From IMG/VR virus record IMGVR_UViG_3300013121_000039, positions 1-64,000 of that record: 64,000 nucleotides of DNA. One strand, 5' to 3'. Under the pieces are notes generated by a model. That model made no database searches, had not been told where the DNA came from, and worked only from the letters and a program-made list of their open reading frames with translations. Origin of the DNA: a virus (lineage: Duplodnaviria > Caudoviricetes). The first letter of the stretch is position 1, and each line of letters starts with the position of its first letter. The position numbers and the translations under genes are program-made. Below are positions 37,027 through 63,357 of the stretch, piece by piece.

Positions 37027-37715
37027 GCGATTTTCGAGACCTGGTGACAATGGAAGAAGCGGCCAAGATGCTGGGTCGCACGGTCCGCTCTGTCCGCTCA
37101 TACATGAAGACCGGCCTGCTGCGCAGGATCGTGGACAGCAAGAAGGTCTTCATCCCGAGGACCGACGTGGAGCAGCTCCAGGTCGAACTCGGAGCCGGCT
37201 TCCCGCCGATGAACCGCAAGACCTTCAACCAGCTGGTGGCCCACGTCCAGCGGCTGGAGATGGACCTCGTCGTCCTGAAAAGGATGAACGGCGTCTACGA
37301 CTCCCCACTTCGCCCGACGAAGGAGGAAACATCCAACCTCTTCCAGGCCTGCGTCGCAGCCCTCTCTGCGGGCTCCTGGACCCTCTCGGAGATCTCGCAG
37401 TGGGCCGACCTCTTCGAGAAGATGGATGACGTCTTCTTCGAGGTGCTAGCCGACAACATCGGCGTCTCCGACCCGTGGAGGCCCTTCTACCAGATCTGCG
37501 TGGCGCAGATGAAGCAGCTCTCCTCCATGGAAGGGTACAAGTCCTCTCTCGAACTGCAACATCTTCACAGCCGTCTCTCCATCGGCCTCTCCACGATGCG
37601 GCGTGTGATCATGGTCTGGATCGAGGCGGGGCGTAGCGAGAAGGCGCACGCAGTGGCGACGCTCATGGATGGGATCTCAGAAGCAGTGCTGCGTCGACTC
37701 ACAGCAAAAGCGTAG
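37020..37715 (+). CDS. Helix-turn-helix (MerR/excisionase-like) DNA-binding protein
   Basis: VTMEEAAKMLGRTVRSVRSYMKTGLL..VFIPRTDVEQL, followed by a coiled coil. Confidence 0.8.
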   Translation: MGSDFRDLVTMEEAAKMLGRTVRSVRSYMKTGLLRRIVDSKKVFIPRTDVEQLQVELGAGFPPMNRKTFNQLVAHVQRLEMDLVVLKRMNGVYDSPLRPTKEETSNLFQACVAALSAGSWTLSEISQWADLFEKMDDVFFEVLADNIGVSDPWRPFYQICVAQMKQLSSMEGYKSSLELQHLHSRLSIGLSTMRRVIMVWIEAGRSEKAHAVATLMDGISEAVLRRLTAKA

Positions 37716-37734
37716 AGCCTCCGGAGATAAGAAG
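37704..37734 (+). promoter_or_regulatory. Putative phage-RNAP promoter (AAAAG...GGAGATAAGAAG)
   Basis: Matches the motif at 55721-55755 and 63323-63357. Upstream of a plus-strand gene. Confidence 0.55.
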
Positions 37735-37774
37735 GTGACGGGTAGTTCTTCACCTTTTTCGGAGGCAACACATC

Positions 37775-38092
37775 ATGCAGCCTGACCAGTCCACCGGCGC
37801 TCCGTCCAGCGCCAAGACCTTCAACATCACCTGCAACGCCGAGGAGCTCGTCGGCATCGCCAAGGGCGCCGCCATCGCGGGCGACGTCAAGACCGTGAGC
37901 CGCGCCGAGGAGCTGCTCGGCCAGAAGGTGGAGGTCGGCTTCTTCGACCGCCACCCCATGACCACTGGCGTGGCCATCGGCGTCGTCGCCGGCGCGGCCG
38001 TCGCCGGCGGCACCATCCTCGGCGTGCAGGCCTACAAGCGGCGCCAGGCCGCCAAGCTCCAGGCTCCCAGCCGGCTGCGCCGGGTGGGCTAG
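37775..38092 (+). CDS. Small membrane protein (C-terminal TM helix plus basic tail)
   Basis: GGAGG RBS; GVAIGVVAGAAVAGGTILGV then YKRR. Confidence 0.75.
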   Translation: MQPDQSTGAPSSAKTFNITCNAEELVGIAKGAAIAGDVKTVSRAEELLGQKVEVGFFDRHPMTTGVAIGVVAGAAVAGGTILGVQAYKRRQAAKLQAPSRLRRVG

Positions 38093-38192
38093 TAGGATTG
38101 GGCACTCGGCGTAGTAGACCTGCGAGGACGCTCGCCACGACGTGGACAGACAACCCACGCCGTCCCAGAAGCCGAGTGGCGCGAGGGAGCGC

Positions 38193-38236
38193 GCGGAGTC
38201 GGGACTCACCCCCCGACTCCGCCCCGCTTTCTTAGC
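38193..38236 (+). terminator. Hairpin + TTCTTAGC terminator
   Basis: 11-bp stem GCGGAGTCGGG/CCCGACTCCGC, then CTTTCTTAGC. Confidence 0.65.
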
Positions 38237-40031
38237 CATCTTCCGGCGCAGCGTACCCGGTCTTCTGGGTCGGGTTCATCACGTCGTAGCGCGGGTGCCT
38301 GATCATGGAGGCCAGGAAGCAGAGCAGGATGGAGTGGTAGGAGTCGTCCGTGGCATCAGGCGCATGCTTGTACTGCACCTGCCTCTGGACCTCGTTGTAC
38401 TCCGAGAAGATGGAGAGCATGTCCTTCGCGAAAGGGTCCTCGAACTGGGGCCAGTTCGGGAAGCGGAGCACGTCCCGGCGCTTGATGGCGTTGAAGATGT
38501 CGCTCATCACCTCGGTGCGGTGAACGAGGAAGCGCTGGAGCCCCTCCTCCCACTTCACCTTCTGGCCAGGCTGGCTGTACTGGTACTTCACGAGGCGCTG
38601 CTTGCCGAAGATGCGGGCCAGGGCGTCGTTGCGGTCGAAGCCGCCGCCGTAGTCACAGCCCACCAGCTTGACGTCCCAGTACCGGATGAGCTTCTCGATG
38701 AGGTCCAGCTGGATGGGGGGCTCGATCTCCTGCCCCTCGAACCGGTGGATGTAGAAGATGGTGAAGAAGCCGTGCATGTAGGCGCCGAGGGAGAGGACGG
38801 TGTAGCTGCCCTCGCCGGTGCCCCAGTCGATGCCGGCGTAGACGGGGGAGCTGCCGCCCAGGAACCCCTTCAGCTTCACCAGGCTCTCGGAGTCCATCGA
38901 CAGGCTGTCGAGGCAGTTGTCCATCACGTCCTGGCGCGTGAGGGGTCGGGTGCCGGAGTCGTACGAGAGGCCGAGCACCTCGTTGTAGAACTGGCTCCGC
39001 GGGTACTTGATGTACTTGTCGAAGATCTCGCCCCAGTTCAGCCAGGGCACCATGAGCTGCGGGATCCGGTAGCCCTCGTACCAGTCCTTCAGCTTGTCCT
39101 TCACCCCGGGATTCATGGTGACCCACTGGGCCATGGGGTGCCGAGGGTCGATCCGCTCGCCGCACTTGTCGCAGACGAGGCCCTCCTTCGAGATGTGGGC
39201 CTCCCCCAGGATGTTCCAGTGCCAGCTGCTGGGGTTGTTCGGAGTGCCGTGCCGATCGCAGGGGACCGCCCACTCGTTCTGGGTCGAGTAGTTGGTCCAG
39301 TAGTGCTCGATGGCGTTGTCGTAGCTCTTCGGCGTGCCGGAGTAGATGAAGAGCTTGTAGTGGGAGTGTGAGGCGCACTCCTCGATGACGGGGATGTTGT
39401 CGGTGATGATGTCCTGGATCTCGTCGAGGAGGACGAGGTCCGCAGGGATGCCGCGAGTACGATCGGCGTTGTGGTAGGCGTACCGCAGCGTGATCTGGCT
39501 GCGGTTGATGAACTTCTTGAGGAAGACGTTGTCCGAGAGCTTCGAGGTCGTCCAGGCCTTCAGGATCTCCGACGTCTCGATGGGCTCCTTGAGCCGGTCG
39601 GCGGAGAAGGTCTTCGTCTGCTGGTTGGTCGGGGAGACGTAGAGGACGTTGAAGGCGTTGATGATGCAGCAGTAGGCCAGCGTCTTGTTGCCGAGGAGCG
39701 TCGACTTCTCCACCTGCCGGCCACACTTGTAGAGGGTGCGGCGGGAGGGGGTATCGTAGGGGAGGCGGAGGTACTCACGCTTCTTGAAGCTGAAGTTGAT
39801 GTGCTTCTGAAGCTCCTTGTCCGGGAGCTTCACGGCGAACTCGACGAACTGGGAGGGGGAGACGTTGATGAGCTCGGCCTGCTTGCGGGCCAGCTCGTCG
39901 TCGCTCATGAACTCGTCGGTGATCTCCGGCTCGTAGTCCCACTCCTCCCGCAGCTCGGGCTGCCCGCTCTCAGAAACGATGATGTTGGAGGTCTCCCGCC
40001 TCCATCGGCCGTAGTCGAGCACACTCTGCAT
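38232..40031 (-). CDS. terL: Terminase large subunit (GpA-like)
   Basis: Walker A KCGRQVEKST, Walker B RGIPADLVLLDEIQD, SGTPK coupling motif, Zn pair CDRH..CDKC, nuclease YAGIDWG..DDSYHS. Exact start uncertain. Confidence 0.9.
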   Translation of the reverse strand: MQSVLDYGRWRRETSNIIVSESGQPELREEWDYEPEITDEFMSDDELARKQAELINVSPSQFVEFAVKLPDKELQKHINFSFKKREYLRLPYDTPSRRTLYKCGRQVEKSTLLGNKTLAYCCIINAFNVLYVSPTNQQTKTFSADRLKEPIETSEILKAWTTSKLSDNVFLKKFINRSQITLRYAYHNADRTRGIPADLVLLDEIQDIITDNIPVIEECASHSHYKLFIYSGTPKSYDNAIEHYWTNYSTQNEWAVPCDRHGTPNNPSSWHWNILGEAHISKEGLVCDKCGERIDPRHPMAQWVTMNPGVKDKLKDWYEGYRIPQLMVPWLNWGEIFDKYIKYPRSQFYNEVLGLSYDSGTRPLTRQDVMDNCLDSLSMDSESLVKLKGFLGGSSPVYAGIDWGTGEGSYTVLSLGAYMHGFFTIFYIHRFEGQEIEPPIQLDLIEKLIRYWDVKLVGCDYGGGFDRNDALARIFGKQRLVKYQYSQPGQKVKWEEGLQRFLVHRTEVMSDIFNAIKRRDVLRFPNWPQFEDPFAKDMLSIFSEYNEVQRQVQYKHAPDATDDSYHSILLCFLASMIRHPRYDVMNPTQKTGYAAPEDG

Positions 40032-40048
40032 GCGGTAGAACCCTCTCG

Positions 40049-40375
40049 ATGAGACCGCCCGGACTGGCCTGGTTGACTTCCTTCTGCGACTCCATCGGCA
40101 CCGCGATGGGGCAGACCATCGTCTCAGACGTCAAGAACAGCGTCAATCCACTCGTGTACACCACCTCGGTGTCCTGGCGCGACCCGGTGAAGATGGACTC
40201 GGCCGTTCAGGTCTGGAACCTCTTCCAGAAGTGGGCCGCCGCGAACCGCTGCACCCCCTCTGGTCGCGTGACCTTCCAGCAGTTCGAGAAGCTGGGGGCG
40301 ACCCTGGTTCTCGGGCTGTCGGTCGAGGTGCACCTGCGTGAGAGGCTTGGACATCCGCAAGATCGTCACCCCTAG
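40049..40375 (+). CDS. Hypothetical protein
   Basis: 108-aa ORF with plausible codon usage, divergent from the terminase. Confidence 0.55.
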   Translation: MRPPGLAWLTSFCDSIGTAMGQTIVSDVKNSVNPLVYTTSVSWRDPVKMDSAVQVWNLFQKWAAANRCTPSGRVTFQQFEKLGATLVLGLSVEVHLRERLGHPQDRHP

Positions 40376-40392
40376 CTGCCATAAGGAAAGCA
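40357..40392 (+). promoter_or_regulatory. Putative phage-RNAP promoter (GCAAG...GCCATAAGGAAAG)
   Basis: ATAAG at 40381, intergenic, upstream of the Zn-finger and RNase H genes. Confidence 0.45.
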
Positions 40393-40409
40393 GAAAGGGG
40401 TTTCTAGCC

Positions 40410-40607
40410 ATGAGAACGTTCAATGCAACGCCCGGGCACATCTGCAAGCTGTGCGACAAGGCCTTCGTGGAAGGGGAGCAGGTCGTCCTCATCTCCATCG
40501 GCCCATCCGACGCTGAAGAGGCTGAGAAGAAGGCGGCCGGGAAGGCCTACACCAGTGAGGCGGTCGTCTCCCATGTCGAGCACATCCGAGAATTCCTGCT
40601 CGGCTAA
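40410..40607 (+). CDS. Small zinc-finger-like protein (65 aa)
   Basis: ICKLCDKAFVEGEQVVL...SHVEH. Confidence 0.6.
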   Translation: MRTFNATPGHICKLCDKAFVEGEQVVLISIGPSDAEEAEKKAAGKAYTSEAVVSHVEHIREFLLG

Positions 40608-41244
40608 GAACGGCCTCATCGCGGGGCTTGACGAGGTGGGCTGGGGCGCTGGGGCCGGGCCCATCGTCTCGGTGGTAGCAGTCCTCTCTGCCGCCGACCT
40701 ACTCCTCTTGCCGAAAGGGGTCACGGACTCGAAGAAGCTGTCCCCTGCCAGGCGGGAGTCGTTCTTCGAGCACATCTGCGCAGCCTGCACCGACATCGGG
40801 ATCGGGGCCGTGGATGCCTGGGAGATCGACGCCATCAGCCCCAAGCGAGCTCTCCAGACGAGCTACAAGCGCGCCATCGAAGAGCTGCGCGTCGTGCCAG
40901 AGCTCCTCATCGTGGACGGTACGGAGTGGAACAACAAGGTCCTCGCCTGGCCCAACAAGCAGCTCATCGAGCCGAAAGCCGACCTGAAACACAAGCAGGT
41001 CTCCGTCGCCAGCATCATCGCCAAGGTGGTGCGAGACACGGTGATGAGCGAGCGGGCGGCCAAGTTCCGTCGGCTGGGGCTGCCCGATTACAACTGGGCG
41101 AAGAACAAGGGCTACCTGACCCCGGACCATCTACGTGAGATCGAGCAGCACGGTCTGTTGTTCGGGCCGGCGCAGGAGCTCTACCACCACCGACGCAGCT
41201 ACTGCCGGAACCTCCTCGGGAAGGTGCCCATCCGCACCTTCTGA
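40573..41244 (+). CDS. rnhB: Ribonuclease HII
   Basis: IAGLDEVGWG..AGP, DSKKLS, LIVDG, KAD..VASIIAKVVRD, NKGY, HRRSY. Start likely ATG 40573. Confidence 0.92.
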   Translation: MSSTSENSCSAKNGLIAGLDEVGWGAGAGPIVSVVAVLSAADLLLLPKGVTDSKKLSPARRESFFEHICAACTDIGIGAVDAWEIDAISPKRALQTSYKRAIEELRVVPELLIVDGTEWNNKVLAWPNKQLIEPKADLKHKQVSVASIIAKVVRDTVMSERAAKFRRLGLPDYNWAKNKGYLTPDHLREIEQHGLLFGPAQELYHHRRSYCRNLLGKVPIRTF

Positions 41245-41247
41245 GGG

Positions 41248-41271
41248 GAAGAGGCTCCGCCTCTTCTTAGC
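41248..41271 (+). terminator. Hairpin + TTCTTAGC terminator
   Basis: GAAGAGGC-TCC-GCCTCTTC then TTAGC, between convergent genes. Confidence 0.6.
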
Positions 41272-43261: not shown

Positions 43262-43268
43262 AGGCGCC

Positions 43269-44141: not shown

Positions 44142-44144
44142 GGG

Positions 44145-48244: not shown

Positions 48245-48253
48245 CTTCTTCTC

Positions 48254-49318: not shown

Positions 49319-52300
49319 CTAGTAGACGTACGGCTTGGGCTTCGCCCCTGGGGCCGGCTTGGGGGCCTTCCCGAACTCCGCACCATAGGCCAGGCCGGGG
49401 ATGGGGTGCGAGCCGTGGATGTCGCTCTTCCACCCCATGCCGGCGCCACGCTGAATCGTCTCGCCGAGGCGCTGGTAGTTGAGGCGCGCCATCCAGTCCT
49501 CGCTGAAGCGTGGGATGTTCTCCGAGCCCTTGAGGAATGGCTCGTGGAGGACCGGCTTCGCCTTGGCCCCCTTGAGCTCCCGGTTGTGCTCCTCGACCAC
49601 CGAGTGCGGGACGATGTCGCCGACCTCCCAGTGGGAGTGGCCAGGATCCTTCACCCTCGTGTAGTTGGTGAGGGCCCTGACCACGAGCTCGACGTTGCGC
49701 TGACGCACCGACTGGTCCTTGTAGAGCTTCCCGTAGAGCTCGTCCGTCAGGAGGCGCTGCACATCCTTCATGTCCTTGGTGATGTGGAGCAGCTCCCTGG
49801 GGTGGACCGGCGCGCCCTCATGGGAGAGCGATTGGCCCTTGCGGATCTGCATGCCGACCGTCAGACCCTCCCTCATCTCATCCGGCCGCAGGTGGTGGAG
49901 CACCCCACCGATGTTGACGTCGTGACCGCCGAGGCCTGGAGCCGGCTTGATGGAGAGGATCGGCCCCTCCGTCTTGGCGAGGACCGCGGAGCCGCGGAGG
50001 ATCTCCGGCATCTTGAGGATCTGCTTCAGGCGCTCGATCTTCGAGGTCGAGCTTCCCCCGCGCCCTGAAGCCACACCGCCTGAGTGGAAGGCGTCCATGG
50101 CGAGCTGGGTCGCGGGCTCTCCGAGAGCCTGCCCGGCCAGGACGCCGATGTTGGTCCCCACGGAGTGGAGCTTCCCGTTCTCGTTCAGGCCGAAGCACTT
50201 GGCGCAGATCCCCTCGCCGTGCTGGCAGCGAAGCGGGGAACGGACCTGGACCTCCTTCTTGGGGCCGAGCAGCTTCTTGAGCCCGTTGACCACGTCCGGG
50301 GTGAGCAGCGTCCCCGCACGGTGCTGCCCGTACTCCTTCGCGAGGAAGCGGTCGTGGATGTCCTCATGGTCGAGCGACATCGAGATGCCGTTGTGGGTCT
50401 TGCAGTCGTCGCTCGTGATGAGGGTCGCGATGGTGGAGTTGATGATGTCCTTGGTCATCGTCCCTGGCTCCTTCGTGCCAGAGGCGCGGTCCAGGGTCCC
50501 CTTGCGCGCACCATGCTGCGCCAGCCAGTAGTCGCCGAGGTCGAGCCCCTCTCCGTAGGACTTGGTGATGGGGCTGAGCACCGTACGACCTGCCGAGTCC
50601 TTCACCAGCATCGGTGCCGCGATCATCTGCCGGAGCTGGTTCTGCTTGCCGCGAGCTCCCGAGTGCACCATCGTGGCGAGCCGGTTGTCCGACCCCACCT
50701 TCTTCGTCGCCGCGTCGAGCTTCTGGGTCGCCTCGGTCCAGTGCGCCTCCAGAGCCTTGCTCAGCTGCTTCCGGTCCTTGATGGATGCCTTCATCTTCTG
50801 GGCACCCTGTTCGTACTCGTGGATGATGCGGTCCCGCTCCGGGATGGTGGCGAAGTCCTTCAGGCCGATGGAGAAGCCGTGCTTGAAGGACTGGTCGGTC
50901 CCGAGATCCTTCAGGTGGTTCACCGCCGAGTCGAAGTGGTCCGGGTGCTTCCTGGCCACTTCCTCCACGAGACCGTGGAGCGTCCCCTTCGACACCACGT
51001 AGTTGGGGTCGTGGAGCAGCGTCTCGTTCTTGGAGAACCCCCGCGGCATCTTCTCGGCGATGAGCAGTCGCCCCAGGGTGGTCGGACCCTTGGCGCCCTG
51101 GAGGTGCACCACGTCCGTCATCTGGAGCTGGCCCGAGTCGTGGGCCTTCTTCATTTCCGCGATGGTCTTGAAATTCTTGCCCGTGTCGGACCCCCACTTA
51201 GAGATGAGGTGCAGACCGAGCATGAACTCCTGGTTGGGCACGTGCATGGGCCCGAAGGTGGTCGGCGAGAAGAGGTTCTTGGAGGGGAACATCCCCTTCG
51301 CCTCCTCCACCGCCTCTCGGGAGATCGGCACCGTGCCGGCCATGGTGTCGCCGTCGAAGTCGGCGTTGAAGCCGCCGGTGACGAGCGGGTGGATCTTGAT
51401 GGCCTTACCCTCGACCACCTTGGGCCGGAAGGCCATGACCGAGAACTTGTGCAGGGCCGGGTCCCGCTTGAGCAGCAGGGGGCGGTCGGCCATCACGGCG
51501 TCGAGCGCCTTGAGGGCGTGCGGCGCCTTCGACTGCATGGCCTCCAGTGCCTCCTCGGGGGTGTACCCGAGCTTGGTGTGGAGGTGCGCGATGACGAAGG
51601 GCTTGTAGAGCTCCATCGCTGCATGGCCCGGGAGCCCGACCTCATCGAGGTGGAGGGTCGGCTCGGGGATGATCACGGAGCGGATGGAGAGGTCCTGGCG
51701 ACGCTTGACGAGGCGGGACTGGAAGTAGCCCGTCTTGGGCTGGTCCCCGCCGATCACTTCGAGGATGCCCTTGAGCGGCCTCTTCTCGGCAGCGTCCTTG
51801 TCGTAGATCGGGTCGTAGGAGCCCACGGACTGGAGCGCCTTGAGCCCGTTCCAGAGGGAAGTGCGGACCATGGAGCCGGGTTCGGGGCCGAAGCGGTCGA
51901 CCGGCAGCTCCCGCAGCTTCTCGTTCAGCAGGAAGACGTTGCGGTAGTGGTTGTTGAGACTGCTCTTCGCCACGTCTCCATAGTTGGTCATGGCGACCGG
52001 CCGGAACTTGGGAGGCAGGACCGGCACGTTGTGCATGACGTAGGCCTCGTGCGGCTGGAGACCCGCCTCCTTCAGCGCCAGGAGGTACTTCAGAGAGCGG
52101 TTGTACTGGTCCCGCTTGTTGCCGCGCTTGGAGCCGATCTGCTCCCGGATCATCTTGATGGAAGCGTCGACGTCGATCTCCTTCAGCGCATCGCGGATCG
52201 CAGCCCCACCGGTCTTCCCGTTGAGCTGCTGCTTGCCCGTGACGACGGCGTCCACATCCGACACCGAGAAGTTCGGATGCTTGAGGCCGATGAGGGATGG

Positions 52301-55300
52301 GATGGGGCCCTTGTTCTGGGTGTCGCCGACGAAGATCGGGTTGGGCAGTGGTTCGGAGAGCTTGAAGTGGCTCCACCGATCCCCCTCGGTCCCGACGATG
52401 GCCGGGTCGAAGAAACCGCCCTTCTCGGGCTTCACGCTTCTGGCGATCAGGAGCCCGGCCGTCTTCACCTCGTTCGCCCCAGCGAGCCTCAGGAGGTTCT
52501 TGTCCCCCATCGGCAAGAGCCGGAGGTGGGACCCGTTCTTCTGGACATCGACCCCGAGCCCCTTGAGCAGCCCCTCGAACTTCTGGAAGGCGAACGGGAC
52601 CTTCGGGGTCCCAGGCTCGTGCCCCTCCTGGATCATCGACCAGAAGTCCTCTGACTGCTTGTCGGACTTGTAGGACGCCATCTCGCGCAGCACGTTGCGC
52701 GCGTTGTGTCCGAGGAGGGAGTAGACCTCCAGGGCACCGAAGCCTTGGCCGCTCTGCGGCCCGCCCCTGACTGGCTGGTTGTCCTGGTCGTACTTGTAGC
52801 CCTGAGGAGCTCGTCCCGGGGCTCCGAGGTCGGAGCCGCCGCCGCGGACGAAGAGCTTCTTCTCGACCTGGTGCTTCAGCTTGATGATGTGCTGAGGTCC
52901 GACGAGGACCGACCCCAGAGGTCTGCGCGAGTCCTTCGGATCGAAGACCTGCTCCTCGTCCGTGAGCCCGTGCTTCTTGAGGTCCTCCTCCACCTGCTTG
53001 CGGTAGTCGTGGTTCGCGCCGGCGAAGTTGTCGACGAGGTAGGTCTTCCCCGTCTTCTCCGCGATCTTGGCCGCGGCCGTCTCCAGGACCTGTCCGACGT
53101 TGATGCGGGTCGGCACGCCGGACGGGTTGAGGATGACGTCGAGGGGCTTCTTCTTCCCCTCATGCGTCGTGTATGGCATCTCGTCGTCCGGCAGGATCAT
53201 CGTGATGATGCCCTTGTTGCCGTGCCGGCCCGAGAGCTTGTCGCCGATCTCGGCCTTCTCCTCCGTCTTCACGAAGACGCGGACCGACTTCCCGTTGGGG
53301 CTCTTCACCACCCGGGTCACCACCCCCGGCCGGTCCTCGTCCCAGGTGAGGGACTTGTCCTTCCAGATGTTGGTGAGCTTGGTGTCGAACCGCTTGGCGG
53401 CGTCGAGCGCCTTCTCCAGGTTCGGGGTGACGCAGGTGGCCAGCACCTGACCGGGGAGGACGCGCGCCCCCTCCTTGATCACCCCATCATCGTCGAGCGC
53501 CTTCCAGTGCTCCGGCGTCATGCTCTCCGCCCGACGAGAGGCGTTGGCCTTCCAGACGCTCTTGCTGGTCCGATCCTCCTTGGGATCGATGTCGAGATGG
53601 AGCTTGTGGAGATGCTCCGAAGTCAGCCGCTCCGAGGCGCTCTGTGAGATGACGATGCCGTCCTCGAAGTTGTAGCCCTTGTACGGCAGGTAGCCCACGC
53701 GCAGGTTGGTCCCGAGCGCGAGCTGGCCGTTGCGGGTGAAGTTCGTGTCCGCGACCCGCTGGCCCGCCTTCACCTCGTCCCCCACCGCCACCGTCGGCGA
53801 CGAGTGCAGCATGGTCGTCGGGTCGTTGAGCGGGAAGTGGTTGTAGAGATGGACGACGTGCTCCTTCCCGCCCTCGTTGATGTGGATGGCGTCAGGAGTG
53901 ACCTTCGACACCTTCCCGGCGACCTTGGAGGTGTGGGAGGCGAAGGAGGTCCCGATCAGCTTCTCGAAGGTGTTCTCCGGGTTCGCTGGGTTCACCACCG
54001 ACTGCACGAGAGGCGCTTCCCGGTGCTTCAGGGAGATGGCCTGCTCCATCTGCTTGTCGGCCATCGACGCCCGGTTACCTTGATCGGTGGGCAGGAAGGG
54101 GATGAGGTTGGAGGCGTAGCTGAACATGCCCTTGGCGGAGGGCATGATGAAGTGGGCCTCGGAGAAGGGCCTCTTCTCGATGTCGCCGCCAGGGAGCTTG
54201 ACCTTCACCTCCTTGGCGATGGGGACCGGCTTGCCTCCGGTGAACTTCACCTGGTCAGGCAAGACCACCATGGCGGTGTGGAACTCCGGCACGGAGACGC
54301 TGCGGAGCTTGCCGGTCTTGAGGTCGTAGACCTGGGTCTTGAGCTCGTTGTTCTCCTTGCGGACCGCTGACCCGAGGTGGAGCGTGATACCCGTCCGCTC
54401 CGACTCCGGGGTGTGCATCGGGTCGAGGAACCCAAAGTGGGATGGGTTCACGGTCTGCATCTCGGCGCCGAGCGTGTCGGGGCTCTTGATGCCGCCGAAG
54501 TCCTTGGAGATGAGGGTCGTCTTGAAGTTGGCCGAGAGCATCTGCACGGGGTTGGTCTGCTCCCCGCGCTCTGCCACGCCACTGCCCTTCGAGAAGAACT
54601 CCCGGATCGGCCGGTTGAAGACCTCACCGCCGAGGAGGATCTCGGAGGCCGAGTTCTTGTGGCTCAGGGTGGCTCGCACCTTCTGGACGATCTGGTTCCG
54701 GCTCTTGCCGAGCTTCTCCGGCAGGTAGTCCTCGATGTGGGCCACTTCCTTGAAGATGAGGCTGTCCCGGTCGTCCGGCTCGACCTCCTTGCGCTCCAGC
54801 TTGATGAGCTTGTGGACAGAGGCCAGCAGAGCCCCGCCGGTCACCTTCGAGAAGGGGGTGCCGAGCGTCACCCGGGTCGTGTCAGGGAGAAGCTCCGTCT
54901 CGTCGAAGTACTTGTAGACGTGCTCCTTCACCTGCTCCGGCGTGGGGGACGACAGCTCGCCGCCCGTCTTCTCGTAGAACTTCCGAAGCGTCCGGTCGAC
55001 GGCTTCAGGGGCAGCGATCCGGTTGGCTGCGAAGACCTGCTTGCCCCAGGTCTGCTCCATCTCGTCGTCGGACACGCCCATGACCTTCATGAGCGGGTAG
55101 ACGGGGATGTGGGCCCCACCGCCGTGGGGCGTGAACTGGATGAGGCTCTTCTTCCTGTCGAGCTCCAGCGTGAAGTTCTTGTGGCCGCCCTTGCGCAGCA
55201 TGAACTCCGAGGCCAGGTCGCCGTTGCGACGGACCTTGGTGTAGACGCCGGAGCGCAGCTTGAGCAGGTGGTCGACCTGGTACTCCCCTCCATCGACGAT

Positions 55301-55600
55301 GAAGGAGAAGCGCGAGGTCATCTTGGGTACCTTCGCGACCTGGAGCGTGGAGGGGCGGCCGACCGGCTTCCCGGTCAGGTTGTCGACCAGTTGGACCGTC
55401 GCCTTGATGGGGATGCCCCAGGTCTGGTCGTGGTCCTTGGCGTGGACCTGGCTGGCGATGTCGTTCGGGTCGAGGTTGTCCTCCGCCCAGATCTTCAGGA
55501 GCTCCAGAGAGCGGTTCCTGGACTTGAAGTGGGGGAAGAGTTCCTGGACCTTCTCGATGACGTTCTGCGTGAGATTCGTCATCTTGGCGTCGGAAGCCAC
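49319..55600 (-). CDS. Phage DNA-dependent RNA polymerase, fused beta-beta' (2093 aa)
   Basis: Beta motifs HFGFLDPMHTPES, GYNFEDGIVIS, GDKLSGRHGNKG, LNPSGVPTRINVGQ. Beta' motifs RDPALH, FNADFDGD (51347-51367), HGARKG bridge helix, GEPATQLAMDAFHSGG trigger loop. AGGAG RBS before GTG. Confidence 0.95.
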   Translation of the reverse strand: MASDAKMTNLTQNVIEKVQELFPHFKSRNRSLELLKIWAEDNLDPNDIASQVHAKDHDQTWGIPIKATVQLVDNLTGKPVGRPSTLQVAKVPKMTSRFSFIVDGGEYQVDHLLKLRSGVYTKVRRNGDLASEFMLRKGGHKNFTLELDRKKSLIQFTPHGGGAHIPVYPLMKVMGVSDDEMEQTWGKQVFAANRIAAPEAVDRTLRKFYEKTGGELSSPTPEQVKEHVYKYFDETELLPDTTRVTLGTPFSKVTGGALLASVHKLIKLERKEVEPDDRDSLIFKEVAHIEDYLPEKLGKSRNQIVQKVRATLSHKNSASEILLGGEVFNRPIREFFSKGSGVAERGEQTNPVQMLSANFKTTLISKDFGGIKSPDTLGAEMQTVNPSHFGFLDPMHTPESERTGITLHLGSAVRKENNELKTQVYDLKTGKLRSVSVPEFHTAMVVLPDQVKFTGGKPVPIAKEVKVKLPGGDIEKRPFSEAHFIMPSAKGMFSYASNLIPFLPTDQGNRASMADKQMEQAISLKHREAPLVQSVVNPANPENTFEKLIGTSFASHTSKVAGKVSKVTPDAIHINEGGKEHVVHLYNHFPLNDPTTMLHSSPTVAVGDEVKAGQRVADTNFTRNGQLALGTNLRVGYLPYKGYNFEDGIVISQSASERLTSEHLHKLHLDIDPKEDRTSKSVWKANASRRAESMTPEHWKALDDDGVIKEGARVLPGQVLATCVTPNLEKALDAAKRFDTKLTNIWKDKSLTWDEDRPGVVTRVVKSPNGKSVRVFVKTEEKAEIGDKLSGRHGNKGIITMILPDDEMPYTTHEGKKKPLDVILNPSGVPTRINVGQVLETAAAKIAEKTGKTYLVDNFAGANHDYRKQVEEDLKKHGLTDEEQVFDPKDSRRPLGSVLVGPQHIIKLKHQVEKKLFVRGGGSDLGAPGRAPQGYKYDQDNQPVRGGPQSGQGFGALEVYSLLGHNARNVLREMASYKSDKQSEDFWSMIQEGHEPGTPKVPFAFQKFEGLLKGLGVDVQKNGSHLRLLPMGDKNLLRLAGANEVKTAGLLIARSVKPEKGGFFDPAIVGTEGDRWSHFKLSEPLPNPIFVGDTQNKGPIPSLIGLKHPNFSVSDVDAVVTGKQQLNGKTGGAAIRDALKEIDVDASIKMIREQIGSKRGNKRDQYNRSLKYLLALKEAGLQPHEAYVMHNVPVLPPKFRPVAMTNYGDVAKSSLNNHYRNVFLLNEKLRELPVDRFGPEPGSMVRTSLWNGLKALQSVGSYDPIYDKDAAEKRPLKGILEVIGGDQPKTGYFQSRLVKRRQDLSIRSVIIPEPTLHLDEVGLPGHAAMELYKPFVIAHLHTKLGYTPEEALEAMQSKAPHALKALDAVMADRPLLLKRDPALHKFSVMAFRPKVVEGKAIKIHPLVTGGFNADFDGDTMAGTVPISREAVEEAKGMFPSKNLFSPTTFGPMHVPNQEFMLGLHLISKWGSDTGKNFKTIAEMKKAHDSGQLQMTDVVHLQGAKGPTTLGRLLIAEKMPRGFSKNETLLHDPNYVVSKGTLHGLVEEVARKHPDHFDSAVNHLKDLGTDQSFKHGFSIGLKDFATIPERDRIIHEYEQGAQKMKASIKDRKQLSKALEAHWTEATQKLDAATKKVGSDNRLATMVHSGARGKQNQLRQMIAAPMLVKDSAGRTVLSPITKSYGEGLDLGDYWLAQHGARKGTLDRASGTKEPGTMTKDIINSTIATLITSDDCKTHNGISMSLDHEDIHDRFLAKEYGQHRAGTLLTPDVVNGLKKLLGPKKEVQVRSPLRCQHGEGICAKCFGLNENGKLHSVGTNIGVLAGQALGEPATQLAMDAFHSGGVASGRGGSSTSKIERLKQILKMPEILRGSAVLAKTEGPILSIKPAPGLGGHDVNIGGVLHHLRPDEMREGLTVGMQIRKGQSLSHEGAPVHPRELLHITKDMKDVQRLLTDELYGKLYKDQSVRQRNVELVVRALTNYTRVKDPGHSHWEVGDIVPHSVVEEHNRELKGAKAKPVLHEPFLKGSENIPRFSEDWMARLNYQRLGETIQRGAGMGWKSDIHGSHPIPGLAYGAEFGKAPKPAPGAKPKPYVY

Positions 55601-55688
55601 GAGTACTCCTAGCGCCTGGCGGTCGGCGTTATGTCGAACGGCCCTCTCTCCTCGCCACTGGAGATCTCCGAGCCTGGGCAGCGGTCCG

Positions 55689-55718
55689 AGGATACAGGCG
55701 GGCCGTCTGGGATGGCAA
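55689..55718 (-). promoter_or_regulatory. Putative sigma70-like promoter TTGCCA-N18-TATCCT for the RNAP operon
   Basis: Intergenic, back-to-back with the ATAAG motif. Confidence 0.6.
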
Positions 55719-55720
55719 TC

Positions 55721-55755
55721 GAAAGTCGTGTCAGAACGACGGCATAAGAAGAGAA
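55721..55755 (+). promoter_or_regulatory. Putative phage-RNAP promoter GAAAG-N18-ATAAG (CGGCATAAGAAGAGAA)
   Basis: 16 bp (55740-55755) identical to 63342-63357, with GAAAG at the same offset in both. Confidence 0.7.
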
Positions 55756-55800
55756 GCAGGAGTTCCTCAGTTCACCTCTCACTTTTTGGAGCAAGTCACG

Positions 55801-55932
55801 ATGACGACCGGCAAGAGCACCACCGACTTCGAGGATGAGGTCCACGACGCCTTGCTGGGGGGCCTGGTCGAGGATGATCAGGAAGAAGAAGAAGACGTGG
55901 AAGACGGGGATAAGAAGGAAGAGGAGGAGTAG
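55801..55932 (+). CDS. Very acidic 43-aa peptide (not in ORF track)
   Basis: MTTGKSTTDFEDEVHDALLGGLVEDDQEEEEDVEDGDKKEEEE. GGAG RBS, TAGATG coupling. Confidence 0.65.
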   Translation: MTTGKSTTDFEDEVHDALLGGLVEDDQEEEEDVEDGDKKEEEE

Positions 55933-56052
55933 ATGGGTCTTTTCTTCGCGGCATTCGTGGCGTCGTTTTGCGGGTACTTCCTGATGCGGGCGGGGATGGA
56001 GATCTTCCGCGTCCAGCAGGAGGAGGCCTGGCGGCAAGCGCAGGGAGCGTAG
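55933..56052 (+). CDS. Small membrane peptide (39 aa; not in ORF track)
   Basis: MGLFFAAFVASFCGYFLMRAG...; GAGGAG RBS, TAGATG coupling on both sides. Confidence 0.65.
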   Translation: MGLFFAAFVASFCGYFLMRAGMEIFRVQQEEAWRQAQGA

Positions 56053-56481
56053 ATGGAACATCCTGTCCGCGTCGCCTTCTGCAAGATCCTCTTCTGGAAG
56101 AACGGAGGCACGTTCGACGTCAGAGGCATGCCGATCCGGGCGCAGCGGCAGCAGTACATTCGTGGGAAGTGTTCCCAGCCCTACGACTGCGGACAGTGCT
56201 CCCTTCTCCAAGAGTGGCTTGCCTCCCTTAGCGCTGCCGGATGGCAGTGGGGGTGGGAGTGCGACGCCTGTCTCAAGGAGACGCTGGGGCAAGATCGAGC
56301 CGCCGGGACCGAGAGGTTCGTGCAGGGCTACTACCAGGCCGGCCGCAAGGCAGACCTCTCGCCGGACGACCCCGACTTCGACCCAGACCGTCCTCAGCTC
56401 GAAGGCTGCACCAGGTGCGGCTGGGAGAGCTCCTTCTTGCAACTCGTGCTCAGGAGGCTTCCCCCTCAAGCATCCCCATGA
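56053..56481 (+). CDS. Cys-rich (zinc-binding) hypothetical protein
   Basis: C..DCGQC, WECDAC, GCTRCG. Confidence 0.7.
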   Translation: MEHPVRVAFCKILFWKNGGTFDVRGMPIRAQRQQYIRGKCSQPYDCGQCSLLQEWLASLSAAGWQWGWECDACLKETLGQDRAAGTERFVQGYYQAGRKADLSPDDPDFDPDRPQLEGCTRCGWESSFLQLVLRRLPPQASP

Positions 56482-56843
56482 CCAGCTACTACCAATCAAT
56501 CTTCCCAGGGCACCAGTCGTCCGACCTCAAGACCGCAGAAGGAGAGCCGATCTACACCGGGCCGTACACCGCCGCCCAGGCTCCGTTCCTGGAGTGTGCA
56601 GCTTGCGGCGGTGCCATCACCGTAGGGCAGCGGGTGACGCTGGTCCAAGAGGTGATGCTGGCCATCACCCACAGCGGGAAGCTGATGTACCTCCCGCTCG
56701 TCGATTTCCCAGAGCAGGCGTTCGTCCACTCCGACTGCTCCTCGGACTTCGCCCACGACCAGATCACGAAGGAGCCGTGCGAGAAGGACGAGGACACGTA
56801 CTGCGCTGGCTGCGAGGTCAAGCTAGGAGGTGAGTCTGAGTGA
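56478..56843 (+). CDS. Zinc-finger protein
   Basis: ATGA-coupled start at 56478. ECAACGGAITVGQRV..VHSDC, YCAGC. Confidence 0.7.
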   Translation: MTSYYQSIFPGHQSSDLKTAEGEPIYTGPYTAAQAPFLECAACGGAITVGQRVTLVQEVMLAITHSGKLMYLPLVDFPEQAFVHSDCSSDFAHDQITKEPCEKDEDTYCAGCEVKLGGESE

Positions 56844-56860
56844 GCCTGTCCGCCGAGTAG

Positions 56861-57079
56861 ATGCGCGAGCCCCTCACCGAAGAGGACATGGACGACCTCG
56901 TCGACTACCTGACCTCGCTCTCGGACACGGTGAAGGGGTACTTCGACCGGATGCGCACCCAGACCCAGGGCAACTCGCCGATCTCCGACACCCTGTGGGC
57001 CTCGCACTGCGCCCTCAACCAGGAGGTGGACCGTCTCACAACGCTTCGGCGCAGCTACGTCTGGCCGAAGGGGAAGTAG
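56861..57079 (+). CDS. Small helical hypothetical protein
   Basis: 72-aa ORF with good codon bias, last of the island. Confidence 0.6.
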   Translation: MREPLTEEDMDDLVDYLTSLSDTVKGYFDRMRTQTQGNSPISDTLWASHCALNQEVDRLTTLRRSYVWPKGK

Positions 57080-57080
57080 G

Positions 57081-57109
57081 AGAAGGGCCAAGGTTGGCCC
57101 TTCTTTAGC
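57081..57109 (+). terminator. Hairpin + TTCTTTAGC (probably bidirectional) terminator
   Basis: AGAAGGGCCA-AGGT-TGGCCCTTCT then TTAGC, between convergent genes. Confidence 0.7.
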
Positions 57110-57111
57110 TC

Positions 57112-59232: not shown

Positions 59233-59235
59233 GCG

Positions 59236-59940: not shown

Positions 59941-60878
59941 GAGGCCCCCAGCCAGCTCTTCAGGTTGGTGATCTGCTCCGCGAGCTGCTTGCGGCGCAGG
60001 TTCATGTAGTCCCTGGCCAGGAGCAGCTTCGCGCACTGCATGTCCTCCCGGCTCTCGGAGTGGGGCTGGAACTCCCGGAAGGACATCCCCTTCACCTCGT
60101 CCCACCGCTTGGCGATGGGCTCCCAGTCGAAGCGGGGGGCGGCCACGACGTTCTTGCCCATCCCGGCCCGCAGCTTCTCCGGCAGCGGCTGCATGGAGAG
60201 CTTCTGGGTCGGGTTCATCCGGTCGGTGCAGTTGGAGCAGACTCCGTCGTGGAAGAGCGCCAGCTCCGTGTTGCCGCAGTCCTTGCAGAGGTAGTGCGGC
60301 TGCGCCACCTCCATCTGGATGAAGTCGAGCGGCGGCGGGACGTAGAAGATGTCCTCGTCCAGCACCGTCGCCGCCATGTAGAGCTTCACCTCGTCCTCGA
60401 ACTCCTGCTCCTTGTTGATGGTCTGGAGCATGTCGACGGAGGCGTACAGCTCTGGGAGCGAGAGCTTCTGGAGATGCTGGAAGTCCGGGAAGTTGCTGTT
60501 GAGCGCCTGGGCCACCTTCTCGAAGATGTTCCACCTCTTCCAGGGCCACTTGGAGACGTGGACCACTTGGAGGGCGCGGATCTTGTGGCGGCAGAGCTCG
60601 GAGAGCTGTGTGGAGAAGCTCTCCTGAATCTCGAACCAGGTGGTCTCCGGCGTCCACCTGAACCAGTCTTCCTGGAAGCTCTTCTGGAGGGCGAAGTCGA
60701 GAACCACCGGGTGCGCGTCGGGGTGGGTGAAGAGGTTGCGGAGCGTGACAGGCTTCGTGGACTCCGGCTCCCCCTTGCGGTAGGCCGCGTCCTCTTCGGG
60801 ACTGCCTTCGGTGGGAGCCGTCGGGGCCTTCGTCTCCAGCGCCTTCAGGCTGGTCGCCAGCGTCTCCTCGGGTGTCAT
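59937..60878 (-). CDS. Hypothetical protein with CxxC..CxxC
   Basis: 313-aa ORF upstream of the portal in the operon. Confidence 0.75.
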   Translation of the reverse strand: MTPEETLATSLKALETKAPTAPTEGSPEEDAAYRKGEPESTKPVTLRNLFTHPDAHPVVLDFALQKSFQEDWFRWTPETTWFEIQESFSTQLSELCRHKIRALQVVHVSKWPWKRWNIFEKVAQALNSNFPDFQHLQKLSLPELYASVDMLQTINKEQEFEDEVKLYMAATVLDEDIFYVPPPLDFIQMEVAQPHYLCKDCGNTELALFHDGVCSNCTDRMNPTQKLSMQPLPEKLRAGMGKNVVAAPRFDWEPIAKRWDEVKGMSFREFQPHSESREDMQCAKLLLARDYMNLRRKQLAEQITNLKSWLGAS

Positions 60879-60879
60879 C

Positions 60880-61464
60880 TTACTCCCAGTACTGGCTGGC
60901 TCCGTGCTGGACCACGAAGGGCTGGTGGGTCTGCGGCACCGCGATCGGCTTGGCGATCGGCTGCTTCACCACCCGCTTGGAGACGGCATGCATGGCCGGG
61001 TTCTGGAGCATCTGGGCATCCCCGGCGGCTCGCGGCAGGACCTTGGGAGCCGCGGCCCGCAGACGGGCCGCCGCCGCCCTGGGGTCGACGAGCTTGTTGG
61101 GAGCAGGCGCCGCCTTGGCTGCCTGCCAGGCTCCTTGGAGGGCGCCCTGACGCAGCATGGCCTTCGGATCGATCGTCGCGAGCTTGGGCTTCTTGAACGC
61201 CTTGTAGGCCGAGTGGGCCAGGTGCATCGCCGATGGGGCGGCGAGGATGCCGAGACCTGCGAGCTCGTACTTGGCAGCCTTCCGCTCTTCGGGTGGCGTC
61301 TCCTTCTTCTTGATCTTCCGGAGACGGTGCACGCTCGGGACGGCGAGGACTCCGAGGCCCGCGAGCTCGGCAGCGTGGGTCAGATGTTCGCCGATGGCCG
61401 CCTCCTTCTCCAGCTCGGAGGAGACGGCAGCGGCCAGGGCCCTGAGACGCTGTGGGTGGAGCAT
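60880..61464 (-). CDS. Tagged basic protein with duplicated ELAGLG(V/I)LAxPS segments
   Basis: Start ATG 61464 (TGATG coupling). AVSSELEKEA. Confidence 0.75.
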   Translation of the reverse strand: MLHPQRLRALAAAVSSELEKEAAIGEHLTHAAELAGLGVLAVPSVHRLRKIKKKETPPEERKAAKYELAGLGILAAPSAMHLAHSAYKAFKKPKLATIDPKAMLRQGALQGAWQAAKAAPAPNKLVDPRAAAARLRAAAPKVLPRAAGDAQMLQNPAMHAVSKRVVKQPIAKPIAVPQTHQPFVVQHGASQYWE

Positions 61465-61781
61465 CAGCGCACCTTCATGACGGGCTTCCGCCCGAGGAGC
61501 CCCTTCTTGGCGGCGACGTCGGACAGGCGCGCCGCGGCAGCCTGTGGGGACACGAGCCTCTTCGCCCGCGCCTGCTCGTTGGCCCACGACTGGAAGGTGG
61601 GATGCTGGCCGACCGGCTGCCGCACCGGGGTCGGCTTGAGGGCAGCCGCCGGTGCGGCCAGCGGCTTCGCCACCTGGCCGATGTTCTTCACGTTCATCGC
61701 CCGGCCCATGCCGCCGACATCCCCGAGGGCTGCGATCTTGGTGAGCTCGTCGAAGAAGGCGTTCAGCGTGACGCGGGTCAT
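61464..61781 (-). CDS. FxDELxKIA-tagged small basic protein
   Basis: MTRVTLNAFFDELTKIA. Confidence 0.8.
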   Translation of the reverse strand: MTRVTLNAFFDELTKIAALGDVGGMGRAMNVKNIGQVAKPLAAPAAALKPTPVRQPVGQHPTFQSWANEQARAKRLVSPQAAAARLSDVAAKKGLLGRKPVMKVR

Positions 61782-63235
61782 GGCACCATCCGGGTGATGA
61801 GGGCCTTGTGGGCGTCCGGCATGGAGTCGAAGATCGCCGTGGGGTTGGCGCCGAAGGCCTCCACGAAGTCGGACGAGAAGGTCTGGGAGAGCTGCTCGGT
61901 GGGGATGGAGCGGAGCGCCGCCTCGTCCACCGACTCCCCGTCAGCCCCCTGCCAGGCCCACGCCACCTTCTCCTGCCCACGGCCGCCGAACGTGGCGAAG
62001 TAGGGGTCCTGGATCGCCCCACCCCAGTGGAGGTCGAGGTCGAAGAGCTGGTCGGCCTCCTTGAGGAGCTTGGCGAAGGTCTCCGGCTCGATCATGGCCC
62101 TCTTCTCCTGGAGGTCGTCCCAGACCTCCGTGTGGGCGGGATCGACCTGCCGGCGGTTGGCGAGATGGGCCTCGACGTCGGGGGCGTACTCGGTGGACCC
62201 GTAGCGGTCCAGGAGGGCAGGGACCTGGATGCCGAGCTCGTCCGCCCGGGCCGCCGTCTTCACGGCGAACTCGTGCCGGTCGGCCGGCTCCATCACGGTC
62301 CAGGACTCCTCGAAGAAGCGGATGGCGTCCGTGACGTCGGAGTAGCTGTCGAGGGAGTAGCGGTCCCCGAGGGCGTGGCGGGAGGCGACCTTCCTCTTCG
62401 ACACCGGCCTCGGCTCCATGGAGGAGACGTCGACGACGTTGGCGACGTGGGCAGCCTTCTTCACCTTCTTCGTCTCGCTGGACGGTCCGTGGGCGACCCG
62501 GTGCGCGAGACGACCGGCGCCGTACCCGAGGAGGGCGTTCTTGCCGGCGTCGACGGCGAGCGGGACGGGGTAGCGCAGGGGGTTCACGCCACTGACCATG
62601 GCAGCAGGGATGGTGGCGGCCGCTCCGACCATGGCCCCTCTGCGCCCCCACCTGCGGGCCCGATCCCGCGTGGACTCGGTCTCCGCCTTGGCCGCCGTCT
62701 TCATCTGGTTGGCGGTGGGGATCACCCGGCCGGAGTCGGCGCCGCCACGGACGGAGATGAGGTTGGTGCGTTGGGCCCAGTCGGCCTCGTCTCCGACGTA
62801 GGGCTCGTTCTTGGAGTCCCGCTTGCGGGCGAGGGCCGTGGCGGCAGCCTTCTTCTCCCGGACCGGCAGCCCGGTCTCGGCGGCGAGGAGGAGGTCGGGC
62901 GGGACGTCGAGTCCGAACTCCTGGTTGAAGGCGATGAGGTTCTGGGCGGCCGTCTTGATGGCCTCGGCCGGCAGCTTCTCGGCGTTCTCCAGGAAGTAGA
63001 GGGTCGAGAGCGCCGTGTTCCCCTCGTCGACGCAGGCGAACTTGCGCAGGTGCGAGTCGCCCGCGTGGAGGATGAGGGCGAAGGCCTCGTCGCGGAGCAC
63101 GTTGCGCTCCTCCGACGAGAGGAAGTGGGCCGTCTTGATCGACTCCGGCAGGTCGTCGGGAGACGGGCACCAGCTCTTCAGCACCTCCCCGCCCTTGTCG
63201 TCGTAGAAGTCGAGCACCAGTCCGGCTGTCTTCAT
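61778..63235 (-). CDS. Putative internal head protein, K-x-A rich
   Basis: Start ATG 63235 (AGGAG upstream). MKTA, IKTA x2, KKAA, RKVA, VKTA, EKRA, EKVA; inserted glycine-zipper segment. Confidence 0.75.
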   Translation of the reverse strand: MKTAGLVLDFYDDKGGEVLKSWCPSPDDLPESIKTAHFLSSEERNVLRDEAFALILHAGDSHLRKFACVDEGNTALSTLYFLENAEKLPAEAIKTAAQNLIAFNQEFGLDVPPDLLLAAETGLPVREKKAAATALARKRDSKNEPYVGDEADWAQRTNLISVRGGADSGRVIPTANQMKTAAKAETESTRDRARRWGRRGAMVGAAATIPAAMVSGVNPLRYPVPLAVDAGKNALLGYGAGRLAHRVAHGPSSETKKVKKAAHVANVVDVSSMEPRPVSKRKVASRHALGDRYSLDSYSDVTDAIRFFEESWTVMEPADRHEFAVKTAARADELGIQVPALLDRYGSTEYAPDVEAHLANRRQVDPAHTEVWDDLQEKRAMIEPETFAKLLKEADQLFDLDLHWGGAIQDPYFATFGGRGQEKVAWAWQGADGESVDEAALRSIPTEQLSQTFSSDFVEAFGANPTAIFDSMPDAHKALITRMVP

Positions 63236-63277
63236 CTTCTCAGCTCCTAAGTGGTGGGGAAGGCTCCGGCTTTCGCG

Positions 63278-63307
63278 AGTGTAGGGCCTTCCCCCCACGA
63301 GTGGCAA
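63278..63307 (-). promoter_or_regulatory. Putative sigma70-like promoter TTGCCA-N18-TACACT
   Basis: Intergenic. Partly overlaps an inverted repeat (GGGGAAGGC/GCCTTCCCC). Confidence 0.6.
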
Positions 63308-63322
63308 CGAGAACGTGCCTCG

Positions 63323-63357
63323 GAAAGACCGCGAAAGGAGGCGGCATAAGAAGAGAA
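63323..63357 (+). promoter_or_regulatory. Putative phage-RNAP promoter GAAAG-N18-ATAAG
   Basis: Identical 16-mer to 55740-55755. Confidence 0.7.

Follow-up and report, generated by a model that had tools for sequence, protein, structure and literature searches.

The window, as it is called below, comprises positions 1–64,000 of a phage record of 138,310 bp in IMG/VR (IMGVR_UViG_3300013121_000039; 65% GC; estimated completeness 72%). Gene units on its plus strand are preceded by sites built around the motif ATAAG, which are most likely real two-box promoters upstream of non-structural genes. Judged from sequence, the architecture of these sites is the geometry of a sigma70-family promoter, with G instead of T at position −7. 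The phage encodes a single-chain bacterial-type RNA polymerase (RNAP) and a divergent sigma factor, which together probably read the ATAAG sites as the promoters of all non-structural genes.

ATAAG sites in the phage record

A preliminary description of this DNA had pointed to a 16-mer, CGGCATAAGAAGAGAA, occurring identically at 55740 and 63342, with GAAAG starting 23 nt before ATAAG at each copy. Both coordinates are exact, GAAAG is found at that distance in both copies, and the 138,310-bp record holds no third copy. With the A of ATAAG numbered −11, the 16-mer covers positions −15 to +1 of the two most consensus-like promoters. The variants described at 37727 and 40381 are also real. The upstream box of the first is GCAAA (37704–37708) in the common register, not AAAAG as had been proposed; the GCAAG of the second was correctly read, and lies one nucleotide further upstream than the common register.

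The genome scan for strand and position bias that had been suggested yielded ten ATAAG-class sites in the whole record (ATAAG at 37727, 40381, 55744, 63346, 68958, 82760, 128862, 129412, 131823 and 136581), four of them in the window. All are intergenic, on the plus strand and 26–158 nt upstream of plus-strand open reading frames (ORFs). They follow the pattern G(C/A)AA(A/G)-N15-G-N-C-ATAAG, with C directly before ATAAG in nine of the ten. A gap-free alignment on ATAAG shows, in columns that were not selected, A(−21) in 10/10, A(−20) in 9/10, G(−3) in 10/10 and C(−1) in 9/10, these four positions being offsets from the start of ATAAG. With a position weight matrix (PWM), the ten sites score 23–34 bits, and the next-best match in the genome scores 13.6 bits.

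Over the whole record, CATAAG is found ten times on the plus strand and never on the minus strand, and ATAAG 14 times and twice, respectively. By itself, the hexamer CATAAG is no more frequent in the window than chance predicts (4 observed, 4.09 expected). The possibility that it is merely an over-represented word was rejected, the enrichment being found only in the two-box pattern and its placement. This pattern has 4 matches in the window for 0.06 expected, and none of 100 shuffles reached 4; one of the four matches (55889–55914) is a coding Glu/Lys-rich stretch and not a site. The promoters of the window are the following.

37704–37738, plus strand: ATAAG promoter 1; −35 box GCAAA at 37704–37708, G(−14) at 37724, ATAAG at 37727–37731, predicted start near 37738; heads a 105-aa ORF (37775–38092)
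40357–40392, plus strand: ATAAG promoter 2; −35 box GCAAG at 40357–40361, 18-bp spacer, G(−14) at 40378, CATAAG at 40380–40385, predicted start near 40392; heads a 65-aa ORF (40410–40607) and the RNase HII gene (end at 41244)
55721–55755, plus strand: ATAAG promoter 3, a consensus copy; GAAAG at 55721–55725, GGCATAAG at 55741–55748, predicted start near 55755; heads a small-gene island from the ATG at 55801 to 57079, and directly adjoins the divergently oriented RNAP gene promoter
63323–63357, plus strand: ATAAG promoter 4, a consensus copy; GAAAG at 63323–63327, GGCATAAG at 63343–63350, predicted start near 63357; heads a long replication block from 63390 (216-aa ORF, SNF2-type helicase, DnaB and others)

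The plus-strand units behind ATAAG sites encode small unknown proteins (37775–38092 and 55801–57079), RNase HII, an SNF2-type helicase, DnaB and a class II ribonucleotide reductase. The minus strand of the record carries the tail sheath, large terminase, RNAP and sigma genes. The motif had been assigned to early genes. It does head the islands of small genes, but this assignment is too narrow, as the RNase HII, SNF2/DnaB helicase and ribonucleotide reductase genes are also included, and early timing is unproven.

Promoter architecture

Statistics were pooled over 69 sites from four genomes. The layout consists of G(C/A)AA(A/G) at −34 to −30, a 17-bp spacer, a G at −14, where the 'TG' of extended −10 elements has its G, and, at −12 to −7, the hexamer (C/T/G)ATAAG. 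The spacer is 17 bp long in nine of the ten sites of the record and 18 bp in the other, and its columns carry less than 0.2 bit each. The pooled sites display A(−32) in 64/69, A(−31) in 60/69, G(−14) in 67/69 and A(−11) in 69/69. G is found at −7 in 69/69, in part because the sites were chosen by ATAAG, and no variant with ATAAT scored. At the seventh nucleotide after the hexamer, the predicted +1, 58/69 sites have a purine; this column lay outside the model and peaks relative to its neighbours.

Two boxes are thus separated by a fixed and free spacer of about 17 bp, as expected of the sigma70 family, and a candidate cognate sigma is available in the 303-aa sigma70-family protein encoded at 118154–119065 on the minus strand. 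The −10 hexamer has A(−11) but G instead of T at −7, which makes the sites sigma-promoter-like in their working and places them outside the housekeeping class. A scan with the housekeeping sigma70 consensus (at least 9 of 12 letters, including T(−7)) retrieved none of the ATAAG sites; it matched a separate minus-strand class, at 55718–55689 and 63307–63278. The motif had been called not sigma70-like. This is correct for the letters, which differ from TTGACA and TATAAT, but not for the geometry, which is that of the sigma70 family, of which the phage encodes a member.

Among the closest known arrangements is the extended −10 promoter of bacterial sigma70-family holoenzymes (TGnTATAAT, with or without TTGACA). 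The ATAAG sites share with it G(−14), A(−11)T(−10)A(−9)A(−8), the 17-bp spacer to the −35 box and, in most sites, the purine 7 nt past the hexamer at the predicted start. They differ from it by the G for T at −7 in every site, the tolerance of C, G or T at −12, a −35 box that is GCAAA or GAAAG instead of TTGACA, and a reader that is probably the phage sigma with the phage core. Superimposed on ATAA, the sigma28/FliA consensus (TAAAG-N14-GCCGATAA, as generally given) has the same register, and its TAAAG is similar to (G)AAAG, but CCGATAA is replaced by GnCATAAG.

A resemblance to the baculovirus late promoter, (A/G/T)TAAG, had been noted and held to be probably convergent or coincidental. The letters TAAG are common to both, as is a virus-encoded two-barrel RNAP as the reader. 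In baculoviruses, TAAG acts as an initiator, transcription beginning inside it, and neither a sigma nor a fixed upstream box is involved. Here, ATAAG lies at −11 to −7 of a sigma-type promoter in which the upstream box and G(−14) are both conserved, and the phage encodes a sigma. We agree that the likeness is coincidental.

Conservation in related phages

The orthologous divergent site before the RNAP gene keeps AACGAAAG-N15-GG(C/T/G)ATAAG in 14 of 16 related contigs and its spacer drifts, which constitutes a phylogenetic footprint. The two-box footprint holds across 13 aligned orthologous regions. In the three complete relatives, PWM matches of at least 13 bits are distributed 32:1, 25:6 and 23:3 between the strands, and none of the 59 exact-ATAAG sites of at least 16 bits shares a strand with the RNAP and structural genes. 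One relative (G001) has a dense cluster of ATAAG before small ORFs at 164–191 kb. The sites are strand-specific, intergenic, present at each strand switch and footprinted, which supports the promoter function originally proposed.

Salmonella phage Arash (OQ632216.1; 52% GC) has a bacterial-type RNAP, an orthologous sigma (gp10) and the same strand-segregated layout, with the structural, RNAP and sigma genes on one strand, and the small, ribonucleotide reductase and tRNA genes on the other. It contains about 13 copies of (T)GGTATAAG(T/A)AAnnTGTA, 25–40 nt upstream of non-structural start codons, and TATAAG is distributed 19:1 between the strands over 50 kb. Arash differs in that β and β′ are separate genes, in the downstream box TAAnnTGTA, which is absent from the present phage, and in that one motif copy, upstream of gp9–gp10, precedes the sigma operon, as none does in the present phage. 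Vibrio phage D69 (44% GC) follows the same strand logic with TG(T/C)TATAAG(T/A)AAnnTGTA and a TAAACA-like box 14 nt upstream. The core G-n-(T/C)ATAAG with G(−7) is therefore common to three phage groups on very different hosts. To our knowledge, no Salmonella sigma consensus fits it. The paper on Arash reports no promoters (PMC10585845).

The phage RNA polymerase

49319–55600, minus strand: single-chain bacterial-type RNAP, a β–β′ fusion of 2093 aa, with Pfam Rpb2_6 (1e-60) and Rpb1 domains 1–5

The fusion matches solved bacterial RpoB chains, up to 1.7e-74 (254 bits). Full-length fusion relatives were found on 16 IMG/VR contigs (50–74% identity; 50–64% GC), several of which are complete at about 177–209 kb. 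The closest cultured counterparts are those of Vibrio phages D69, D148 and D181 (29% identity, full length) and of Arash (33% over 69% of the fusion); a megablast search of the gene against phage records gave no match. No match to T7-like RNAP (PF00940) was found in this record or its complete relatives. In the β part (52301–55600, minus strand), Rif cluster I (residues ~335–380) has diverged from solved RpoB, with FMDQ replaced by RGEQ and THKRR by ANFKT; the phage RNAP is thus predicted to be insensitive to rifampicin.

The RNAP of D69 (L064, 19932–26983) is made of two large ORFs of 1527 and 609 aa with two small ORFs between them. The sister phages D181 and D148 have a homing endonuclease at that gap, and the gap of D69 contains one ATAAG-type site on the opposite strand.

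Among nine minus-strand proteins tested against PHROGs, eight, including the sigma, had no match. The exception is a 490-aa SF2 DNA helicase (phrog_62, 7e-46) encoded at 93832–95304 of the record, minus strand, in a large block of unknown giant proteins. As a helicase adjoining β′ is abundant in Arash virions (PMC10585845), the 490-aa helicase may, by analogy, be associated with the RNAP and packaged.

The phage sigma factor

118154–119065, minus strand, record coordinates: divergent sigma70-family factor of 303 aa, ortholog of Arash gp10, inside the structural block

With Arash gp10 as the query, one homologue was retrieved in each of five genomes (G000–G004). A profile of the five family proteins covers regions 2–4, and only sigma factors are among its top 43 matches in the PDB: RpoS (4e-6), then RpoD, SigA, SigB and FliA, the last being weak (E = 0.46). 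Two unrelated chains have E-values of 0.47 and 0.79. Compared with Arash gp10 by hhalign, the profile reached 99.2% probability. The Pfam sigma models gave nothing convincing in this record; one family member, the G004 protein, passes the cut-off of Sigma70_r3; and Sigma70_r2 (PF04542) has no match in this record or the complete relatives, save a sub-threshold one in G005 (12.5 bits, E = 0.021). Together, the profile and gp10 comparisons identify the protein as a divergent sigma70-family factor orthologous to gp10. The annotated sigma of D69 (0246) is not an ortholog of this phage sigma, and a weak Sigma70_r4 match at 37047–37121 of the window was traced to the HTH_17 domain of what is probably a small terminase, unrelated to gp10.

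Residues 8–21 of the phage sigma form a conserved N-terminal extension, EALEWVLGKLAA, in which W13, K17 and A20 are invariant and which is not present in Arash gp10. About ten products of structural-strand genes do bear an N-terminal tag, FxDELxKIA. The extension loosely resembles this tag and might be a packaging signal.

A second, sigma70-like promoter class

Several minus-strand operons are preceded by TT(G/C)CCA-N17/18-TAnnnT, with T at −7. Three copies are the following.

36998–37026, minus strand: sigma70-like promoter, TTCCCA-N17-TACGCT, upstream of the gene at 36024–36959 (minus strand)
55689–55718, minus strand: sigma70-like promoter of the RNAP gene, TTGCCA-N18-TATCCT; −35 box 2 bp away from that of ATAAG promoter 3
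63278–63307, minus strand: sigma70-like promoter, TTGCCA-N18-TACACT, of an operon starting near 63235 (minus strand); back-to-back with ATAAG promoter 4

Further minus-strand copies end at 24833 and 5767, and a TTGGCC-N17-TACCCT copy is found near 128.83 kb. One promoter of this class is on the plus strand, upstream of the leader of a 41-tRNA array. The copy of the RNAP gene is kept in the relatives as TTGAC(C/G)-N17/18-TAnnCT. The sigma gene lies in a structural block on the same strand, and no promoter was mapped for it specifically.

At strand switches, promoters of the two classes are arranged back-to-back. At the RNAP locus (55713–55725), their −35 boxes are 1–2 bp apart on opposite strands, and CTTTCGTTGAC is conserved there in the relatives. 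The −35 boxes overlap near 128.83–128.86 kb and are 15 bp apart at 63.3 kb (63302–63327). Two polymerases may compete or cooperate where the boxes abut or overlap.

The probable reader of the ATAAG promoters

It is proposed that region 4 of the phage sigma, with its helix-turn-helix, would bind the −35 box and that region 2 would bind the hexamer, the sigma working with the single-chain β–β′ RNAP (49319–55600). The small-gene islands, the replication genes and the genes of nucleotide metabolism would be expressed in this way. The fixed G(−7), where host sigma70 needs T, would keep the host holoenzyme off and render the sites private. The host holoenzyme would read the TTGCCA/TTCCCA-N17/18-TAnnnT class, that is, the RNAP gene and several structural operons. 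As the RNAP gene is behind a host-type promoter, the host RNAP probably makes the phage enzyme. The latter would either enter the cell from the virion after packaging, in the manner of phage N4 and as the Arash virion proteome suggests, or be made first after infection, as in T7. The sequence itself establishes the motif, with its register, strand and position bias and conservation, and the existence of the RNAP and sigma genes; the binding partners, the start site, the timing and the packaging are deduced.

The main argument for a phage-encoded reader is that the motif core is shared across hosts together with the RNAP lineage, and the phage RNAP put forward in the preliminary description is on this ground the most likely enzyme. 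Peptides of RNAP β top the protein spectra of Arash virions, in which β′ and gp10 were also detected (PMC10585845).

Several points weigh against this assignment. Attributing each polymerase to a promoter class is a matter of parsimony, two enzymes being matched with two classes; in principle, the bacterial-type core could pair with host sigma70, and the phage sigma with the host core. No alpha-like domain (PF01193) was found in this record or its complete relatives. The RNAP does not carry the FxDELxKIA tag, and the authors of the Arash study caution that abundant enzymes may contaminate virion preparations (PMC10585845). The −35 box is weak in Arash, and three plus-strand units of the window (12772–13911, 37020–37715 and 40049–40375) have no ATAAG site.

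A wider picture can be drawn tentatively, and is somewhat less likely than not: a widespread and scarcely studied lineage of phages of roughly 180–210 kb, ranging from soil metagenomes to Salmonella and Vibrio isolates, would possess a self-contained, alpha-less β–β′ core (a single chain in the present phage) with its sigma, delivered by the virion and acting at private G(−7) promoters, and would use the host RNAP only for the next virions and the polymerase.

Phage sigmas such as SPO1 gp28 and T4 gp55 redirect the host core, and the phage sigma could likewise direct the host core to the ATAAG promoters. The β–β′ fusion would then do something else, for example read the TTGCCA...TAnnnT class with host sigma70 or an unrecognised signal. 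The promoter geometry is fully sigma-like, the sigma belongs to a family that binds the bacterial core, and no alpha-like subunit for the phage core was found in this record or its complete relatives, all of which suit this scheme. It is nevertheless unlikely, because the sigma gene is in the structural block and not among early genes, no third promoter class is seen as a task for the phage RNAP, and the motif core, the RNAP lineage and, in the family of the window and Arash, the sigma co-occur across very different hosts. The presence of the sigma in Arash virions along with β and β′ (PMC10585845) also speaks for the phage core as its partner.

That an unmodified host holoenzyme reads the sites, through the primary sigma on an extended −10 element or through an alternative sigma of the sigma28/FliA type, is very improbable. 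G(−14)-n-(T/C)ATAA does fit 5–6 positions of TGnTATAAT, and the upstream box does occupy the position of the sigma28 TAAAG box when aligned on ATAA. However, the T(−7) needed by sigma70 is G in all 69 sites and in the Arash and D69 copies, the established Salmonella consensus sequences do not accommodate the motif, and the same genome uses a separate, truly sigma70-like class with T(−7). Conservation across hosts with 44–65% GC argues for a reader borne by the phage. Scarcely any likelihood is left to the motif being a binding site of a phage regulator, or a signal for RNA processing or stability at the 5′ end of the units, to which the strong hairpins at or right after ATAAG in four of the ten sites (see below) might point: six sites have none, a pair of boxes 17 bp apart, with a free spacer between them and mostly a purine at the predicted +1, is a promoter signature, and each strand switch into a plus-strand block needs a promoter, for which the motif is the only conserved candidate at 55.7, 63.3, 128.8 and 136.5 kb.

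Relation to other phage transcription systems

The preferred scheme, with phage sigma and phage core at the ATAAG sites, has a precedent in phage N4, where host-type promoters also precede the structural genes and the phage RNAP gene, and a private signal precedes the non-structural genes. N4 uses a virion RNAP for early genes and the host sigma70 RNAP for late genes; the former is T7-like, consists of one subunit and recognises hairpins in DNA without a sigma (PMC4496689). The present phage would have instead a bacterial-type, two-barrel core that works with a sigma on duplex promoters of two boxes; packaging is suggested by analogy with Arash virions. The jumbo phages phiKZ and AR9 also encode two-barrel RNAPs with promoter signals of their own. 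Their β and β′ are split into 4–5 very divergent pieces, no sigma is recognisable in the sequence (gp68, gp226), and the promoters are short AT-rich or single-element signals (PMC7598289, PMC13282480). Here, the core is one polypeptide close to bacterial RpoB/RpoC and is accompanied by a recognisable sigma. Phage multisubunit RNAPs have been reviewed as devoid of sigma homologues, and sigma-bearing jumbo phages as devoid of RNAP (PMC13282480). In the literature searched, neither a phage RNAP fused in this way nor a TATAAG promoter was found described.

The lineage combines a bacterial-like core, a sigma and a candidate promoter code with a T-to-G switch of specificity at −7. By what changes a sigma pocket comes to accept G in place of T, and how an alpha-less single-chain core assembles and initiates, become directly testable questions, for which Arash and D69 are cultured models. 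With this promoter, hundreds of uncultured genomes can be annotated for their non-structural and structural units, and it could also be used as an orthogonal expression signal.

Leaders and hairpins

The leaders at 37744 and 55761 had been described as sharing AGTTC, TTCACCT and TTTT(C)GGAG. These words are present, the last as TTTT(C/T)GGAG, but the similarity is marginal: its score is reached by 7 of 2000 shuffles, and the pair is the best of 45 leader pairs. A real signal common to the two leaders was not retained, as it is not convincingly above chance. In the leader at 37744, they make up the 3′ arm and U-run of a hairpin with its start within ATAAG; no fold was obtained for the leader at 55761.

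A strong hairpin starts from or right after ATAAG at 129412 (z = −7.9; 129417–129462), 131823 (z = −3.6; 131825–131860), 68958 (z = −2.2; 68960–69000) and 37727 (z = −2.1; 37729–37759), in some cases with a U-run. The same arrangement is found at apparent counterpart sites in G001 (98979, 101369 and 43027). These sites look like terminator–promoter cassettes or 5′ stabiliser hairpins; in a cassette, transcripts begun at the promoter would lack the full 5′ arm of the hairpin. The hairpin and U-run at about 37729–37759, which overlap promoter 1, probably terminate the upstream HTH_17 (TerS-like) gene at 37020–37715.

The 5′ leader of the RNAP gene (about 55640–55675, minus strand) contains a hairpin kept in 13 phages with compensatory changes (alignment columns ~150–195). 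In GACCTC-nnTGCGnn-GAGGTAG, the letters of the stem vary and the pairing is kept, and the TGCG of the loop is conserved. The hairpin could have a role in autoregulation or processing.

Other features of the window

Directly behind promoter 2, the 65-aa ORF (40410–40607) is Cys-rich and overlaps the long RNase HII frame (40423–41244). Since the RNase HII domain begins only at residue 67, the enzyme probably starts near 40604–40620.

The stretch 12772–12990 contains a plus-strand ORF of 54 aa whose C-terminal sequence is CopG/Arc-like, with a long inverted repeat, CTTCTTCGC...GCGAAGAG, behind it. The plus-strand island that comes next (13022–13911) has no ATAAG promoter, and contains at 13579–13649 a sub-threshold Rfam match to BjrC68 (E = 0.0018).

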